From Deltaproteobacteria bacterium (lineage in GTDB: Bacteria > Desulfobacterota > Binatia > UBA9968 > JAJDTQ01): a stretch of 64,000 nucleotides of DNA. A program made the position numbers and the translations under genes. The notes below the pieces were generated by a model that did not search any database, was not told the origin of the DNA, and saw nothing but the letters and a program-made list of their open reading frames with translations. Below, piece by piece: positions 1 through 8,485 of the stretch (the first letter of the stretch is position 1; the number at the start of each line of letters is the position of its first letter). The stretch is from assembly GCA_028818755.1 (NCBI GenBank), contig JAPPNF010000108.1, positions 10,259-74,258 of the forward strand, read 5' to 3'.

Positions 1-191
1 AACGCCAGGGCGTTGTCCCCAAGGGCGTTCACGGCCTCGGCCAGCAGGTAGCCGGAGTCGACGCCGCCGGAGAAACAGACCACCACGTGGCCCATTTCCC
101 GCAGCAGCGCCTGAAGCCCGGTTACCTTTTGCGCCAGTTCGGCGTCCTCGAAAGGGTGATGCCCTAGCTCCGCTCCGTGAGCCCCCCGCAC
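1..191 (-). CDS. PP-loop ATP-pyrophosphatase family protein (LarE/TIGR00268-like), N-terminal fragment; gene runs off the window start
   Basis: Minus-strand translation reads ...ELAQKVTGLQALLREMGHVVVCFSGGVDSGYLLAEAVNALGDNALA; SGGVDS is the PP-loop motif. Start unresolved (GTG at 191 or ATG at 95). Absent from ORF track because truncated. Confidence 0.45.
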   Translation of the reverse strand, partial: MRGAHGAELGHHPFEDAELAQKVTGLQALLREMGHVVVCFSGGVDSGYLLAEAVNALGDNALA

Positions 192-200
192 CCCTCCGTC

Positions 201-220
201 ATTCCCGCGAAAGCGGGAAT
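201..220. repeat. Perfect hairpin ATTCCCGC-GAAA-GCGGGAAT
   Basis: Read directly; lies between GST stop (277) and the PP-loop gene start; no T-tract, so not a classical terminator. Confidence 0.3.
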
Positions 221-276
221 CCAGGAAGGGTGGTGTGAAGGAGCCCTTCATCGACGTCAGGACCGATGTCCTCGCC

Positions 277-1293: not shown

Positions 1294-1542
1294 CTACTTG
1301 GACGCCACCAGCTTTCCGTGGGTGCCGTCGCAATACGGCCGGGTTTTCGACCGCCAGCACGCGCAGATGGCCATGGTGCGCGGCTCGTCCACCGTGATCT
1401 CACGGGGCGTGATGGACGTCACCTTGTGCGACCCGTCGCAGAACGGAAAGTTCTGGGTGCGGCCGCACATGCAATAGAACCGGCTCCTGGATTCCTGCCG
1501 GACGATCACCGGCTCGATCAGATCATCATAAGCCAAGCCCAT
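1294..1542 (-). CDS. CDGSH iron-sulfur domain protein (two CDGSH motifs)
   Basis: 82 aa; CMCGRTQNFPFCDGSHK and CACWRSKTRPYCDGTHG motifs. Confidence 0.85.
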   Translation of the reverse strand: MGLAYDDLIEPVIVRQESRSRFYCMCGRTQNFPFCDGSHKVTSITPREITVDEPRTMAICACWRSKTRPYCDGTHGKLVASK

Positions 1543-1703
1543 CGAGGTCCTCCCTTGGTGCTCGCGCTTTCACCCGACCGGGCAGCCACCCGGTTCGCTG
1601 ACCATCGACGCTTCAAAGATATACTCCAGTTTGCCGTCTAGGGCCAGACGAAGGCCAGGCCCTTGCGTGTCGTCAGACAGTCCGTGGGCATGGCTTCGCA
1701 ATC

Positions 1704-3092
1704 CTACACCAGCAGCCCCATGACCGTACTCGCATCGACGACATGGAGACGGGACTCGGCGTCCTCGGGCGTCCGCTCCGGAACGAACAGCGCTTGGTGC
1801 AGTTCGATGTCCTCGGAGCCCGCGAGGTCCCCGACGTGGACGCGCGTGTCTGTGCCGGAGACCTTGACCGGCTGCGTCGTCCACTTGACCTCGCCCACCA
1901 GCAGTCGCTTCCTGTCCACCGAGCGTGCGACGATGTCGAGTTCCGGGGCGTTGCCGCGCCAGTAGCGTTGTGCGGGCTCCCACGGACCTAGGCGGCCCAG
2001 GGTCGTATCCGAACGGTGCAGCAGGGGCACGATGCCGCGGCACAGCTCTTCCCAGGCGACAGCCTCAAGACTGGTCCGGTAACGTCGCCAGTACGTGAGC
2101 CGCGTCTCCCGGGGTGCGGCCGCCAGGGCCGCCCGATGGGGAGCGACCACCCGGAACCACAGGCGCAGGAACGGATCGTCGATGCGATAGAGGCTGCGCT
2201 TGCCGGACTTGGGTTCGGTGCCGAACGGCGTGTCGCGGCGTACAAGCCCTATCTCCGCGAGCGACGCGAGTGGCCGCGACAGGCTGGAAGCGGGCTTGCC
2301 GAGACGGCCCGCGATCTCGCTGACCCGGTGCGCGCCGTTGCCGATGACGTCCAGCAAGGGCCGCAGCGCCGTGGCCGGAGGAGTCTCCTCTCGCAGCAGC
2401 CGTTCGGGTTCACCATGCAGCGGCCCTGCGGCGTCCAGAACCAGTGCATCCACCGCCGCCTCGATGTCGTTCCCGAAAGGTTCGGCAAGCTCCCAGTAGC
2501 GGGGTATGCCGCCCCACAGTGCATAGGCGCTGACCAGGTCGCGATGCTTGTCGAAGGGAAAGGCCTCGGCGAGGTGTCCCGGCGGCAGGGGACCGACCGC
2601 AAAGGCTTCGGCAGCCCGGCCGTAGAGCGGGGCAGCCCCGTCCAGTATTACGCCGTGCATCATGCGCTGGCTCGATCCGCACACTACAAGGCGAACCCGC
2701 CGCTCCGGTCGGTCCAGCCAGTTCTGCAAGACCCCGGGCAATGTGGGGTCCGCATCGATCAGATAGGGCAGCTCGTCGAGCACCCACGGACCCTCCCACC
2801 CGGAGCGATCGGCGTCCGCCGAAAGCCGCGTCAAAAACGAGCGCCAGTCCGGGTACTCGACGTCGGCGAAGCCGGGGAATCGTTCAGCGACCGCTTCCGC
2901 CAGGTAGCGCCGCTGCACGGGCGGCGCGGACTGATCCGCCACCGTGTACAGGCCGTCGTTACCCCGTGTCCACTCGATGAGCAGCCGCGACTTGCCGATC
3001 CTGCGGCGCCCCCAGATGACCCCAAACGCCCCGGGCCGCGACAGCACATTGTCCAGCCGCTCCATCTCGTGGCGGCGATCAAGGAATTGCAT
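1704..3092 (-). CDS. ATPase (archaeal-ATPase/DUF234 type) with C-terminal PD-(D/E)xK nuclease-like motif
   Basis: 462 aa; Walker A GRRRIGKS, Walker B-like WVLDELPYL, wHTH-like middle, C-terminal ELDIVARS...LLVGEVKWT motif typical of DUF234. Confidence 0.65.
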   Translation of the reverse strand: MQFLDRRHEMERLDNVLSRPGAFGVIWGRRRIGKSRLLIEWTRGNDGLYTVADQSAPPVQRRYLAEAVAERFPGFADVEYPDWRSFLTRLSADADRSGWEGPWVLDELPYLIDADPTLPGVLQNWLDRPERRVRLVVCGSSQRMMHGVILDGAAPLYGRAAEAFAVGPLPPGHLAEAFPFDKHRDLVSAYALWGGIPRYWELAEPFGNDIEAAVDALVLDAAGPLHGEPERLLREETPPATALRPLLDVIGNGAHRVSEIAGRLGKPASSLSRPLASLAEIGLVRRDTPFGTEPKSGKRSLYRIDDPFLRLWFRVVAPHRAALAAAPRETRLTYWRRYRTSLEAVAWEELCRGIVPLLHRSDTTLGRLGPWEPAQRYWRGNAPELDIVARSVDRKRLLVGEVKWTTQPVKVSGTDTRVHVGDLAGSEDIELHQALFVPERTPEDAESRLHVVDASTVMGLLV

Positions 3093-3206
3093 TCATTGAT
3101 TATGCATATTAACATTATGCATTTCAACATAATAAAGGGTTGAATTTATTGATCCAACATCACCGATTCCCTGAACTTCCGGGAACATGATAAGACGACG
3201 GCTGAA
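3093..3206. promoter_or_regulatory. AT-rich divergent control region with direct repeats ATTATGCAT (3099-3107, 3114-3122)
   Basis: Visibly AT-rich island in a GC-rich window, between the divergently oriented ATPase (start 3092) and the AbrB-like gene; each repeat contains the ATGCAT palindrome, 15 bp apart. Confidence 0.35.
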
Positions 3207-3230
3207 ATGCAGGATCGAAAGGACTTCCCC

Positions 3231-3461
3231 ATGGGTGAAACGGTGACCGTGTCCAGTCGCGGTCGAATCACGTTGCCATCGGCGCTGCGCAAGCGCCTCG
3301 ATCTAAAGGCTGGTGACATTCTGACCCTGGAGGATCGTGGCAGCGAGATCGTCCTCAAGCCCAACGTCGCCGGGCATTACAGCGACGAAGAGATCGCGGT
3401 GTGGGACAAGGCGGACAGATTGTCGGACCGTGAGCGCGCACGCATACTTGCAACGTTGTAG
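3231..3461 (+). CDS. AbrB/MazE/SpoVT-family DNA-binding protein (antitoxin-like)
   Basis: MGETVTVSSRGRITLPSALRKRLDLKAGDILTLEDRGSEIVLKP is a typical swapped-hairpin AbrB domain; alternative start ATG 3207. Confidence 0.7.
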   Translation: MGETVTVSSRGRITLPSALRKRLDLKAGDILTLEDRGSEIVLKPNVAGHYSDEEIAVWDKADRLSDRERARILATL

Positions 3462-3551
3462 TCTTGCCGCGCCACTGGAGAAACAACGGTGGCAGACTGC
3501 GCCTACCAAATTCGAGGCCGGCGAATGCCGAGGTGAGAATTGAGCCCACCC

Positions 3552-4763
3552 ATGACGACTGACACCGATCCCAGGACGATTACGCGCGTCGCCCTGCGCA
3601 ACTACAAGAGCATTGCGGCTTGTGACGTCGAGTTGACGCCACTGACTCTCCTCGTGGGTCCCAACGGCTCGGGGAAGAGCAATTTTGTTGATGCTCTGCG
3701 TTTTACCGCACAGGCCTTGCGCTTTACTCCGGATCACGCACTGCACGAGCGGGGCGGGATCAACGAGGTTCGCCGGCGGTCGCGCGGTCACCCCAACCAC
3801 TTCGGCATTCGTCTGGGGTTCCGGTTGGCCGATGCTGCCGGCTGGTACGCCTTTGAAATCGGCGCGCGGCCGAAGGGCCGCTACGTCGTGCGGCGTGAAG
3901 AATGCGTTGTCCTGTCCCATTCCGAAGGGCGGGCGTTTTTCCGGATAGATGACGGACGGCTGTTGTCCACCTCGATCCCGCACCCGCCGCCGACAGGCGG
4001 GAGTGACAGACTCTATCTCCTTCCCGCATCGGCGTATCGAGCGTTCAGGCCGATTTACGATACCCTGTCGGGGATGGGGTTCTACAACCTCAACCCGGAG
4101 CAGATCCGTGAGCTGCAGTCGCCCGACCCCGGGGATCTCCTGACCCATGACGGAAGCAACATCGCGAGTGTCCTCGCCAACCTCAAGTCGCGCTCGCCCG
4201 AGACGGCGGCGCGGGTCGGTCAATACCTCTCGAAGGTTGTGCCGGGAACAGTGGGCATGGAGTCAAAGACGGTGGGACCCAAGTTGACCTTGGAGTTTCG
4301 TCAGGAGGTGCGCGGCGACCCCCACCCGTGGCGATTCCTTGCCCATAATGTGTCGGACGGTACGCTAAGGGTGCTGGGCGTGCTCGTGGCACTCTACCAA
4401 GGTATCGACACGGAGTCGGTGAACGCGAAACTCGTCGGTATCGAGGAACCAGAAGGAGCTCTTCATCCCGCCGCTGCGGGAGTGCTGACGGATGTTCTTC
4501 GCGAGGCGAGTGAGCGTGTACAGGTCGTGGTCACGAGCCACAGCGCGGACTTGCTGGACCGGGATACGATTCCTTCGGATTCCATCTTGGCAGTCATTTC
4601 CGAGAACGGAGAGACGAAGATCGCACGGCTCGATGAAGCGGGCCGTACCGCGCTACGTGACGGGCTATTCACGGCTGGCGAGATGCTCCGCATGAACCAG
4701 CTTCTCCCGGACCCGGAGCAGGCGACACAGGTCCAGTTGGATCTCTTCCGCCAGGAGGAGTGA
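3552..4763 (+). CDS. ABC-type (AAA_15/AAA_21, OLD-N-terminal-like) ATPase
   Basis: LRNYKSIAACDVEL..LLVGPNGSGKSNFVDAL (Walker A), LVGIEEPEGALHP (Walker B), VVVTSHS (H-loop); alternative TTG start at 3540. Confidence 0.75.
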   Translation: MTTDTDPRTITRVALRNYKSIAACDVELTPLTLLVGPNGSGKSNFVDALRFTAQALRFTPDHALHERGGINEVRRRSRGHPNHFGIRLGFRLADAAGWYAFEIGARPKGRYVVRREECVVLSHSEGRAFFRIDDGRLLSTSIPHPPPTGGSDRLYLLPASAYRAFRPIYDTLSGMGFYNLNPEQIRELQSPDPGDLLTHDGSNIASVLANLKSRSPETAARVGQYLSKVVPGTVGMESKTVGPKLTLEFRQEVRGDPHPWRFLAHNVSDGTLRVLGVLVALYQGIDTESVNAKLVGIEEPEGALHPAAAGVLTDVLREASERVQVVVTSHSADLLDRDTIPSDSILAVISENGETKIARLDEAGRTALRDGLFTAGEMLRMNQLLPDPEQATQVQLDLFRQEE

Positions 4764-4766
4764 TCC

Positions 4767-5342
4767 GTGGCGAGAATCGTTTCCATCGTCGAAGGGGATG
4801 GCGAAGTGGAGGCCGTCCCCGCCTTGATCCGACGGATCGGCGAGGAGGTCTCCCCGCTCGATCCGCCCGACGTCTTGAGGCCGATTCGCGTTCGTCGGCA
4901 ACGTTTCGTCAAGCCGGACGAGGTCGAGCGCTATGTCAACTTGGCGGCGATCCGTGGTGATGCCGAGGGCCGCATACTCGTTCTGCTCGACGCGGACAGT
5001 GATTGCCCGGCGGAACTCGGACCGAACATCTTGCAGCGCGCCCGCACGGCGCGGTCCGACCGACGCATCGAAGTGGTTGTGGCGAACAGCGAGTACGAGT
5101 CGTGGTTCATCGCCGCGGTAGATTCCCTGCAAGGAACACGAGGGATTACGGCTGACGTGGCGGTCCCGAAAGACCCGGAATCGATCCGGGGAGCCAAGGC
5201 GTGGCTCCGAGACCGGATGAACGGCCCGTACAGTCCAACGGCCGACCAGGCAACATTCACGACTCGTTTCGACATGGCCTTGGCGCGCCGGCGATCACCG
5301 TCTTTCGACAAGATGTGGCGAGCGGTCAGCGCGCTGTTGTAG
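4767..5342 (+). CDS. DUF4276-like / TOPRIM-like protein, coupled to the upstream ATPase
   Basis: GTG start 3 nt after the ATPase stop, AGGAGGAG 7 nt upstream; IVEGDGEVEAV (acidic Glu), VLLDADSDCP (DxD), NSEYESWFIAA - pattern recalled for DUF4276/Toprim-like proteins. Confidence 0.55.
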   Translation: MARIVSIVEGDGEVEAVPALIRRIGEEVSPLDPPDVLRPIRVRRQRFVKPDEVERYVNLAAIRGDAEGRILVLLDADSDCPAELGPNILQRARTARSDRRIEVVVANSEYESWFIAAVDSLQGTRGITADVAVPKDPESIRGAKAWLRDRMNGPYSPTADQATFTTRFDMALARRRSPSFDKMWRAVSALL

Positions 5343-5596
5343 GAGAATTTGCCGTAGCGCAGGCAACGCAACCGGTTGACGCGTGGTCCGCCTTCGGGAG
5401 GGCCCCCTTGCCGCCACCACATTGATGCACTTCAGGACGTTGATCGAGAACAATCTGCTGCGACGCTTGCCAGCGTCATAGTGTGCATTTGCCCGGATTT
5501 CTCGCCCATTAGTTGACATCCCCTCAACCCGTATACTAGGCTTCGATTCCAGCCTCGGCATGACTTTCCTGAAAAAATTCTGCGTGGCGAAACATC

Positions 5597-5998
5597 ATGG
5601 GTAGCGAGACGCTCTGGCCGCTGGGCCTGTACTTTCTGATTGCTCTCGTGGTGGCCGGGAGCATGATCGGGCTGTCGTTCGTCCTTGGCGAACGGCATTC
5701 GGATCGTGCCACCGGGCAGCCGTACGAATCCGGCATCGTCTCCACCGGCTCGGCGCGGGTGCGCCTGTCCGTCAAGTTCTACATCGTCGCGATGCTGTTC
5801 GTGATCTTCGATCTCGAAGCGGTCTTCATCTTCGCCTACGCGGTGGCGTACGAGGAGGTGGGATGGCCCGGTTACGCGGGCCTGGTGGTGTTCGTGGTGA
5901 TACTGGTGGTGGCGCTGATCTACGAGTACCGCATGGGCGCGCTCGACTGGGAGCCGGTCCGGCTCAGGATGGCCAAGGCCGGTCGGGAGAAAGGATAG
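5597..5998 (+). CDS. nuoA: NADH-quinone oxidoreductase subunit A
   Basis: 133 aa, three TM helices, PYESG and FDLE motifs; first gene of the nuo operon. Confidence 0.9.
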
Positions 5999-6638: not shown

Positions 6639-6736
6639 CCTGGCGTTCCGATGAACACGGTTCCATCGCTTCCCGACACGGATCACGGCCTCCATGCGGC
6701 GCCCGTTCGACAGCAACGGCGCAACGGGTGCGGCTC

Positions 6737-8485
6737 ATGAGTGATGCGCCCGCGGTGGTGACCGAGCTCGAAGGCCGTTTCGGCGCCGACGCCTTCACGG
6801 CGCAGGAGACCCGGTGCGGGTTCCCGACCCTGTGGACGTCGAGGGAACGCCTTGCCGCGGTCCTCAAGTTCCTCAAGACCGAAGTGGAGCGGCCTTTCGG
6901 CACGCTCTACGACCTCACCGCCATCGACGAACGCTTCCGCAGGCAGAGGGACGGGCAGCCCGACAACGATTTCACCGTCCTCTACCACCTGCTCTCCTAC
7001 GGGCGGAACGAGGACCTGTGCATCAAGGTGCCGGTGAGCGACGGCGACGCCTCCCTGCCCACGGCGACGGGCCTGTGGCCCTCGGCCAACTGGTACGAGC
7101 GCGAGGTCTGGGACATGTTCGGCGTCCGCTTCGACGGACACCCTTCGCTACGCCGCATCCTCATGCCGCTCACCTGGGAGGGACACCCTCTGCGCAAGGA
7201 GCACCCGGCCCGGGCCACCGAAATGGGTCCGTTCGAGCTTCCCGACGAGCGTCAGGATAGGGAGCAGGAGGCGCTTCGTTTCCGGCCCGAGGACTGGGGC
7301 ATGAAGCGCACCCACGAGGGCACCGATTTCATGTTCCTCAACGTCGGGCCCCAGCATCCCGGCACCCACGGCGTCATCCGCATCGTTCTGCAGCTCGACG
7401 GCGAGGAGATCGTCGACTGCCTGCCGGAGATCGGCTTCCACCACCGGGGCGCGGAGAAGATGGGGGAGCGGCAGTCCTGGCACTCCTTCATCCCCTACAC
7501 GGACCGCATCGACTACCTGGGCGGGGTCATGAACAACCTGGCCTACGTCCTGTCGGTGGAGCAGTTGGCCGGTATCGACGTCCCCGACCGCGCCCAGGTG
7601 ATCCGCGTGATGATGTCCGAGTTCTTCCGCATCGCCAGCCATCTCGTGTGGTACGGCACCTTCGCCCAGGACGTGGGCTCCCTATCGACGGTCTTCTACA
7701 CCTTCAACGACCGCGAGCGGATCTTCGACATCGTCCAGGCGGTTTGCGGCGGACGCATGCACCCGAGCTGGTTCCGCATCGGCGGGGTGGCCCAGGACCT
7801 GCCCAAGGGCTGGCAGGCCATGGTGCGGGACTTCATCGACTATCTCCCGGACCGGCTCGTGGAATACGACAAGATCGTGATGCAGAACCGCCTCTTCAAG
7901 GCGCGCACCCAGGGTATCGGCGCCTACACCGCGGAGGAGGCCATCGACTGGGGCGTCACCGGACCGGGGCTGCGGGCCTGCGGCTTCGACTGGGACTTCC
8001 GCAAGAAGCGGCCCTACTCGGGATACGACCAGTTCGACTTCGACATCCCCATCGCCCGGAAGGGCGACTGCTACGACCGCGCGGTGGTGCGCATCGAGGA
8101 GATCCGCCAGAGCCTTCGGATCATCGACCAGTGCCTCAAGAACATGCCCCCGGGGCACTACAAGTCGGATCATCCGCTGACGACGCCGCCGCGGAAGGAG
8201 CGCACGATGCACGACATCGAGACGCTCATCAACCACTTCCTGAGCGTGAGCTGGGGGCCGGTGATTCCCGCCGGGGAATCCTTCATGGGCATCGAGGCGA
8301 CCAAGGGAAACAACGGCTACCGGCTGGTGAGCGACGGCGGCACCATTCCCTACCGGGTGCGCATCCGGACCCCGTCCTTCGCCCATATGCAGATGATCCC
8401 GCTGATGAGCCGGGGCACGATGGTGCCGGACCTGCTGGCGATACTGGGGAGCATCGATTTCGTGCTGGCGGACATCGACCGTTGA
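6737..8485 (+). CDS. nuoCD: NADH-quinone oxidoreductase fused subunit C/D
   Basis: N-terminal NuoC ([13 protein letters not shown]) fused to NuoD ([10 protein letters not shown] ... RIRTPSFAH) in one frame; alternative GTG start 6728. Confidence 0.92.

Follow-up and report, generated by a model that had tools for sequence, protein, structure and literature searches.

The stretch of DNA analysed here, hereafter the window, comprises 64,000 nucleotides of a Candidatus Binatia genome (contig JAPPNF010000108.1, positions 10,259 to 74,258), and its element of interest consists of three co-oriented genes that lie on the forward strand, upstream of the operon for NADH dehydrogenase. The first of them (3231..3461) encodes an antitoxin of the AbrB/SpoVT (VapB-like) type, the second (3552..4763) an ABC-type ATPase of the AAA_15/AAA_21 kind, presumed to be a sensor or motor subunit, and the third (4767..5342) a DUF4276 protein, presumed to act as a metal-dependent, TOPRIM-like nuclease effector. 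A first-pass annotation had taken the three for a single candidate defence module resembling a split OLD system, and the open reading frames (ORFs), as well as every motif that it described, are indeed present where it placed them. Judged by its sequence, the couple formed by the ATPase and DUF4276 genes is a clear and intact member of HEC-01, a catalogued candidate anti-phage system; the AbrB gene would have a separate origin.

The ATPase ORF (3552-4763, +) comprises 403 amino acids. Its assignment to the ABC/AAA_15-21 type is borne out by the Pfam profiles AAA_21 (E = 1.3e-24) and AAA_15 (E = 4.4e-19), and it matches the PADLOC profile HEC-01A (PDLC04178) with E = 2.7e-158, residues 6-402 aligning on positions 5-397 of a profile of 399. 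The Walker A sequence GPNGSGKS (residues 36-43), a signature-like SDGTL, the Walker B sequence IEEPE (297-301) and the H-loop SHS (329-331) can all be recognized, and the residues of these motifs, together with those of the D-loop, are invariant or nearly so in a family alignment of 25 sequences. Other PADLOC profiles are matched far more weakly, among them mad3 (4e-25), AriA (3.6e-24), Old (1.4e-20) and GajA (7e-15), and the NCBIfam equivalog for MAD3 (NF047739) gives 85 bits against a cut-off of 420.

The DUF4276 ORF (4767-5342, +) encodes 191 amino acids, from a GTG start preceded by AGGAGG. It scores 46.1 bits with PF14103, above the gathering cut-off of 30.2 (residues 8-186 on positions 1-190 of 192), and matches the PADLOC profile HEC-01B (PDLC04196) with E = 4.1e-77 (residues 1-190 on positions 1-191 of 197); no match to DUF4435 or AriB was obtained for 4767-5342 with Pfam or PADLOC. 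The acidic pattern to which the first-pass annotation had drawn attention is carried by IVEGDGE (residues 7-13), LLDADSD (73-79) and EYESW (109-113), and the residues it named are precisely the conserved ones. In 34 close homologues E9, E13, E109 and E111 are invariant, with D75 and D79 present in at least 90%; in 127 representatives at 40-57% identity D75 is invariant, E9, E109 and E111 are kept in at least 90%, and the consensus of the second motif reads LLDADDDCP. The family to which this protein belongs is large, with 2,395 clusters at 50% identity (E <= 1e-3).

The two genes behave as a unit. The DUF4276 gene starts 3 nt past the ATPase stop, the same gap being found in six other loci (L001, L002, L005, L007, L009 and L010), and it is probably translationally coupled to the ATPase gene. 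Within a metagenome sample of 80 loci, with flanks limited to 6 kb, 52 were informative in having at least 1.2 kb of upstream sequence, and in all 52 an ATPase gene lies directly upstream on the same strand. Furthermore, a natural single-chain fusion exists, P0294 (609 amino acids), in which an HEC-01A-like ATPase, 43% identical to that of the window, is followed by a C-terminal DUF4276 domain; it constitutes an OLD-like, one-polypeptide version of HEC-01. Both genes are under purifying selection, the ratio of non-synonymous to synonymous substitution (dN/dS) being 0.04-0.10 for the ATPase gene and 0.08-0.16 for the DUF4276 gene. Carriage by phages or satellites is without support, no relative having been found when viral contigs were scanned with a DUF4276 alignment. 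Altogether, the window holds a match to the HEC-01A profile and a match to the HEC-01B profile in adjacent, co-oriented genes, and the two genes are conserved, co-inherited, selectively constrained, and embedded in or adjoining defence systems. The placing of the pair among the OLD- and PARIS-like systems that combine an ABC ATPase with a nuclease stands.

It could be asked whether the pair is a recently stranded, non-functional relic heading to decay, as has happened in the corresponding place in some relatives: in L013 an internal deletion has left the ATPase fused, from window position 4599, with just the final 48 bp of DUF4276, in L043 the ATPase has an in-frame stop and DUF4276 has been lost, and the ATPase of L014 carries an internal stop. 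In the window, both ORFs are full length and free of frameshifts and stops, with all conserved motifs, an intact Shine-Dalgarno sequence and the 3-nt coupling kept, and a relic thus appears very unlikely indeed, even considering that dN/dS integrates a long history and that a very recent loss would escape it.

HEC-01, or Hma-embedded candidate 01, was described as an ABC ATPase with a TOPRIM-domain partner, was proposed as a defence system by guilt-by-embedding, and was reported to have a conserved metal-binding site by comparison with the OLD protein of B. pseudomallei (Payne et al., bioRxiv 10.1101/2024.01.29.577857). The statement in the first-pass annotation that the DUF4276 version had not been functionally characterised is consequently out of date: HEC-01 has been published and tested twice, with mixed results. 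Expressed in E. coli by its discoverers, it gave no protection against any tested phage (bioRxiv 10.1101/2024.01.29.577857), which speaks against a defensive role for the pair and means that this function is not firmly established. According to a cold-seep metagenome study, E. coli B was protected by one HEC-01 cluster from at least one of the phages T4, T5 and T7. The pair of the window adds little to what is known of HEC-01.

The AbrB gene tells a different story. Its ORF (3231-3461, +) encodes 76 amino acids with matches to the MazE_antitoxin/SpoVT-AbrB family PF04014 (8.4e-12) and to TIGR01439 (1.1e-13); alignment with homologues, which begin MNETL..., supports a start at the ATG at 3231 and not at 3207. 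In five Binatia loci (L017, L018, L021, L024 and L031) an AbrB gene 63-73% identical to it occupies the same slot, the ATPase-DUF4276 pair being absent, and there the AbrB stop overlaps, by ATGA, an ORF of 136-139 amino acids that begins MRLFLDANVLF. The layout is tentatively that of a VapBC-type toxin-antitoxin pair. The window copy remains homologous to these antitoxin genes up to about 3448, where the native C-terminal residues are replaced by ATL-stop, and three codons have been deleted internally; the gene is followed by no cognate toxin gene, and tblastn revealed no PIN remnant in the window (E > 1). What the window holds of a VapBC-type module is, then, the AbrB/SpoVT-fold antitoxin gene with no adjacent cognate PIN toxin gene. 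From these features it would be a leftover antitoxin of an AbrB-PIN pair native to the slot, and not a partner of the ATPase and the DUF4276 protein. Deletions extending from an adjoining island could remove the toxin gene, which is tolerable in a way that loss of the antitoxin alone is not, and would leave an orphan AbrB gene beside whatever follows.

The alternative, favoured in the first-pass annotation, is that AbrB, ATPase and DUF4276 constitute one three-gene defence operon, with AbrB serving a split-OLD system as dedicated regulator or as a partner of antitoxin-like kind. The genes are co-oriented and close together, and read-through from an AbrB promoter is plausible because the stretch from the AbrB gene to the ATPase gene gave no sigma-70-like promoter match. 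Several further points count against regarding the gene as mere debris: its N-terminal DNA-binding domain is intact, with no obvious decay and a dN/dS of 0.14-0.27, an AbrB gene precedes the ATPase in a second locus (L013), AbrB may have an incidental regulatory role on the pair, and the PIN call on which its derivation leans is tentative because the partner ORF matches PIN_3 (E = 1.8e-4) with 22.8 bits, below the gathering score of 27.

Nevertheless, this operon is very unlikely in view of what is found elsewhere. No AbrB gene accompanies the pair in L001, L002/L025, L005, L006, L007, L009, L010 or L022, that is, in any of the copies examined, whether embedded in DISARM or standing alone; AbrB gave no tblastn match in the 80 metagenome loci, and with a small AbrB hidden Markov model no such gene was retrieved from the 600 bp preceding the ATPase in the 46 other loci usable for this purpose, the best hit (E = 0.03) being an evidently spurious ORF. 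To this must be added the five genomes in which AbrB lies with its PIN-like partner in the slot where the pair is lacking, and the loss of the native C-terminus in the window. As for L013, it retains AbrB in full along with some eight codons of PIN, after which come unrelated sequence and then the ATPase, so that its breakpoint differs from that of the window; moreover, the AbrB genes of the two loci are only 63% identical, against 93% for the ATPases. Different breakpoints and discordant identities indicate that the adjacency arose by juxtaposition and not by co-inheritance. The spacer between the AbrB and ATPase genes (3462..3551, +) can itself be divided, since its final ~40 nt (about 3511-3551) go together with the ATPase gene: window positions 3511-3560 give a 51-nt match to the sequence that precedes the ATPase in L010, a DISARM-embedded locus, and the motif GAATTGAGMCCAYCCATG upstream of the ATPase is common to the window, L001, L007, L091 and L043. 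What looks like a three-gene architecture is an artefact, produced by juxtaposition within a hotspot of variable content.

To the left of the AbrB gene, and on the opposite strand, lies a gene (1704..3092, -) with ATPase_2, winged helix-turn-helix (HTH) and DUF234 domains (Pfam: ATPase_2, 3.2e-10; DUF234, 4.9e-8; HTH_IclR, 1.8e-6), which corresponds to the PADLOC candidate PDC-S27 (PDLC04985, E = 5.7e-25, residues 2-422 on positions 5-434 of 484) and forms a separate accessory module spanning about 1655-3161. In the cold-seep metagenome study, PDC-S27 gave no protection. The gene is the sole occupant of the slot in L012 and L015, and it is accompanied there by other remnants in L028 and L033. 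The intergenic region that separates it from AbrB (3093..3230) is AT-rich, with 39% GC against 66% for the window, and had been considered as the control region of the three genes that follow. It contains at 3099-3128 a tandem 15-nt repeat, ATTATGCATATTAAC / ATTATGCATTTCAAC, with ATGCAT palindromes, which overlaps the single sigma-70-like promoter match, directed leftward on the minus strand (3127->3099); the repeat is a candidate operator for the HTH domain of the DUF234/HTH gene itself. L012, which has DUF234 only, is homologous to the window up to 3161, and the AbrB-PIN loci L024 and L031 become homologous from 3162-3165 onward. The tract up to about 3161, with its repeat and promoter, travels with the DUF234 gene and not with the three co-oriented genes, and what follows from about 3162 is the upstream region of the AbrB gene.

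These borders become understandable when the slot as a whole is compared, at the DNA level, with 24 Binatia loci. Its conserved flanks, which extend up to window position 1654 on the left and from 5507 on the right, contain the genes that the first-pass annotation had indicated: a CDGSH iron-sulfur gene (1294..1542, -; PF09360 in the syntenic genes of L002 and L009), whose product is 90-99% identical in amino acid sequence across Binatia loci, and nuoA (5597..5998, +; PF00507 in syntenic genes), the first gene of the NADH dehydrogenase operon, whose product is 90-100% identical across the 24 loci. Between them, the contents vary greatly. The closest relative, L011 (NuoA 100% and CDGSH 99% identical), has an empty slot, as have L019, L023 and L032; five loci carry AbrB-PIN there, L025 (= L002) and L009 carry the HEC-01 pair by itself, and others carry mixtures or debris, L032 and L043 retaining a stub of the DUF234 3' end. 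The pair is present in unrelated contexts in L005 and L006. The slot is a variable chromosomal hotspot and the locus is accessory, in agreement with what had been suspected from the window by itself. No flanking direct repeats, target-site duplications or integrase were found around 1655-5506, and the 164-bp spacer between the pair and the nuoA upstream region (5343..5506) is unique, with no counterpart in any fetched locus, flank homology resuming at about 5507.

We consider it probable that the segment 1655-5506 is mosaic in structure, with three accessory modules, independent of one another, stacked in this hotspot. The first would be the DUF234 ATPase gene (PDC-S27) with its own AT-rich promoter, the second the orphan, 3'-truncated VapB-like AbrB gene, whose PIN-like toxin partner would have been deleted, and the third the intact two-gene HEC-01, composed of the ABC-type ATPase and the DUF4276 protein.

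Some additional observations concern the hotspot and its surroundings. In two loci (L028:8561-8887 and L033:8649-9208) the slot contains ORFs for a ParD-like antitoxin (PF03693, 1.7e-23) and a ParE-like toxin (PF05016, 8e-8), a second type of toxin-antitoxin module at this place. A palindromic repeat of ~40-50 bp, which translates as ...IPAKAGIQ... in spurious ORFs, lies at window positions 173-235 and recurs at L017:9833-9880, L028:9720-9830, L033:9814-9850, L002:3063-3101 and L009:5278-5317, in both orientations and near the slot borders of several Binatia genomes; it resembles repetitive extragenic palindromes (REP) or miniature inverted-repeat transposable elements (MITE) and may promote rearrangements at the slot. 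Two assemblies attributed to the same metagenome-assembled genome (MAG) isolate, 2cc28cda-..., differ in their version of the slot upstream of nuoA, the chromosome OZ243916.1 (L028) having DUF234 and debris and the contig CBDCAF010000018.1 (L030) a DISARM island, which suggests within-population polymorphism or strain mixing. Further downstream, nuoC and nuoD are fused in a single ORF of 585 amino acids (window positions 6728-8485), called from Complex1_30kDa and Complex1_49kDa in syntenic genes, and the fusion is kept across Binatia loci.

The relatives of the pair give an indication of its provenance. In L022 (1-9730), L014, L016 and L030, a large class 1 DISARM island lies upstream of nuoA and ends beside it, and in L001, L007, L010 and L091 the pair follows a helicase and a large methyltransferase. 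PADLOC identified the island proteins with high significance (DrmD, 2.5e-114; DrmMI, E = 0; DrmA, 3e-274; DrmB, 2.5e-82), the four being called directly in L007 and L014 and by homology in L022, L016 and L030. The place of the pair is between drmMI and drmA; L007 carries a PDC-M50A/ThsB-TIR pair next to it as well. One DISARM island with an embedded pair occupies the same slot in a related Binatia genome, and DISARM fragments are found in the slots of others: DrmD in L028 (1e-55), and DrmB in L015 (4e-35) and L033 (7e-7). DISARM-embedded ATPase homologues, 73-78% identical and with no detectable DUF4276 partner, occur in L014 (2637-3848), with the internal stop already mentioned, and in L030 (1735-2928); they are apparently degraded HEC-01 copies in otherwise intact-looking DISARM islands.

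The pair of the window is closest to copies of this kind. ATPase and DUF4276 identities are 95% and 88% with the DISARM-embedded L001 and L010, and 91% and 89% with L022, and only 84-85% and 77% with the syntenic stand-alone copies of L025 and L009. Against these last two loci, the synonymous divergence (dS) of the pair amounts to 1.07-1.6, compared with 0.30-0.43 for nuoA and nuoB, and because of this discordance the sharing of the slot with L025 and L009 is not a matter of simple vertical descent. A reading of the pair as a core gene set, which its synteny in L025 and L009 might have prompted, is ruled out by the presence/absence polymorphism together with the discordant dS. Since its closest relatives (88-95% amino acid identity) are embedded in class 1 DISARM islands, the pair of the window would most likely be a survivor of such an island or a cassette escaped from one. 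It must be weighed against this origin that tblastn of DrmD, DrmMI, DrmA and DrmB against the whole window revealed no DISARM remnant, so that a derivation from a DISARM island is inferred from the relatives only. The occurrence of HEC-01 within DISARM may go beyond the original, Hma-embedded description.

The same relationships admit another explanation, namely that the pair belongs, as an accessory sub-module, to some larger system based on methylation (DISARM, Hma or MADS) and that, alone, it would be inert or only residually active. The nearest relatives lie between drmMI and drmA, HEC-01 expressed alone gave no defence in the hands of Payne et al. (bioRxiv 10.1101/2024.01.29.577857), and MADS holds an analogous couple of ATPase and DUF4276 protein (Mad3/Mad4). 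Intact pairs stand alone, however, in L025 and L009 and in the unrelated contexts of L005 and L006, most of the 52 metagenome loci have no match to DISARM queries within their 6-kb flanks, the cold-seep study reports protection by an HEC-01 cluster alone, and purifying selection is strong also in comparisons with stand-alone copies. Dependence on a larger system is for these reasons unlikely.

A bolder extension would see in HEC-01 an autonomous immune module that is selectively kept as its DISARM host erodes, with the orphan AbrB repressor co-opted as its regulator. In the window as in L013, the PIN toxin has been lost and AbrB still stands directly upstream of the ATPase; if true, this would be an example of defence-system regulation assembled from toxin-antitoxin debris in a chromosomal hotspot; we deem it quite unlikely.

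The nuclease assignment of the DUF4276 protein merits separate consideration. The literature is favourable to a TOPRIM fold: the Menshen study (PMC12065111) added DUF4276 to the Toprim superfamily as a new member, and MADS3-4 (ATPase plus DUF4276) was listed among the ABC-ATPase/TOPRIM systems in a structural paper on PARIS (PMC11464382). AlphaFold models of the protein are confident, both at full length (pLDDT, the predicted form of the local distance difference test, 89.1; predicted template modelling score, pTM, 0.87) and for the core domain (residues 1-122; pLDDT 82.5). They present alternating beta-alpha units in which E9 ends strand 1 (residues 3-9), D75-x-D77 closes the third strand (68-75) and E109/E111 follow the fourth. 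In the model, this placement of acidic residues is that expected for Toprim, the superfamily motifs being represented by a Glu ending strand 1 and an acidic DxD-type stretch, D75-A-D77-S-D79, after strand 3.

Fold and profile comparisons did not reproduce this result, and they weigh against the assignment. Foldseek returned no match with E <= 1e-3, either for the full model against PDB and BFVD or for the core against PDB, and no Toprim or OLD chain was among the top 50 matches of either model; what it gave were generic flavodoxin-like, three-layer alpha/beta folds, such as lumazine synthase, PIWI MID, PurE and small GTPases. Among PDB sequences, a profile search retrieved nothing related. With hhalign, the comparison with a P2 Old TOPRIM mini-alignment gave a non-significant E of 0.14, pairing only IVEGDGEVEAVPALIRRI with LLVEGKTETNVLYALYKKI, the OLD-TOPRIM alignment being thin, as the search for a deeper one had yielded 5 fragments. 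The window protein has no match to PF20469 (OLD-like_TOPRIM), a profile that P2 Old itself matches with 1.2e-17; in a permissive Pfam scan of 127 diverse members of the family, weak secondary matches were obtained to RloB (8), DUF3226 (7), OLD-like_TOPRIM (2) and Toprim (1). The nuclease step accordingly draws on motif placement, weak recurrent Pfam matches and two papers. Of the TOPRIM-like character claimed in the first-pass annotation, the motif placement stands and agrees with the literature, and the fold, not recovered by Foldseek or hhalign, has its basis in published work.

With these reservations, a mode of action can be sketched by analogy with OLD, Gabija and PARIS. The ATPase and DUF4276 proteins would form a complex, in which the ABC ATPase might serve as the sensor of an infection cue, or as an ATP-driven switch, licensing the nuclease. 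The DUF4276 protein would be a metal-dependent nuclease using E9, D75/D77/D79 and E109/E111, presumably activated or released on infection. The AbrB gene would contribute at most upstream transcription or regulation, by accident of position.

What value the locus has is modest and lies in its setting. The Binatia slot could be seen as a natural experiment, since full DISARM with HEC-01, the stand-alone pair, decayed stubs and the empty site are met within one class of bacteria; with all stages of turnover represented in a single slot, it can be argued that an embedded pair is able to outlive its host system. It also illustrates how juxtaposed leftovers, here an orphan antitoxin gene and an adjoining ATPase gene, mimic a multi-gene operon when a single sequence is read alone.

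How the genes of the window relate to known systems can finally be considered one by one. Like the antitoxins of VapBC-type modules, the AbrB protein has the SpoVT/AbrB-MazE fold, and its gene is an orthologue of the antitoxin genes found overlapping a PIN-like ORF in five relatives; unlike those modules, it is without a toxin gene, and its C-terminus is truncated and replaced. Of class 1 DISARM, the window contains none of drmD, drmMI, drmA or drmB, genes that do surround the pair in L007, L022 and L091. The ATPase resembles the ATPase part of the OLD proteins (P2 Old, class 1; Gabija GajA, class 2), and LLVEGKTE of P2 Old aligns with the first acidic motif, IVEGDGE; in the OLD family, ATPase and TOPRIM (PF20469) reside on one polypeptide, whereas the window has two ORFs. 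PARIS is likewise split between an ABC ATPase (AriA), from the same AAA_15/21 radiation, and a separate small nuclease. Its effector AriB is nevertheless a DUF4435 TOPRIM nuclease, and that of the window a DUF4276 protein; the match of the window ATPase to AriA (3.6e-24) is far weaker than that to HEC-01A, and PARIS is characterized by Ocr sensing as trigger and tRNA cleavage as outcome. MADS, through Mad3 and Mad4, also combines an AAA_15/21 ABC ATPase with a DUF4276 protein, and there is weak profile similarity to both (mad3, 4e-25; mad4, 0.0075); the pair of the window represents a different subfamily, the score of its ATPase not reaching the MAD3 equivalog cut-off, and the window contains no methyltransferase, helicase or other mad genes. 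It is HEC-01 that presents the same two-gene order, an ABC ATPase followed by a TOPRIM-like DUF4276 protein, with both profiles matched over their full length. That system was defined from Hma-embedded copies, whereas the pair described here stands alone between housekeeping genes and has its nearest relatives in class 1 DISARM.

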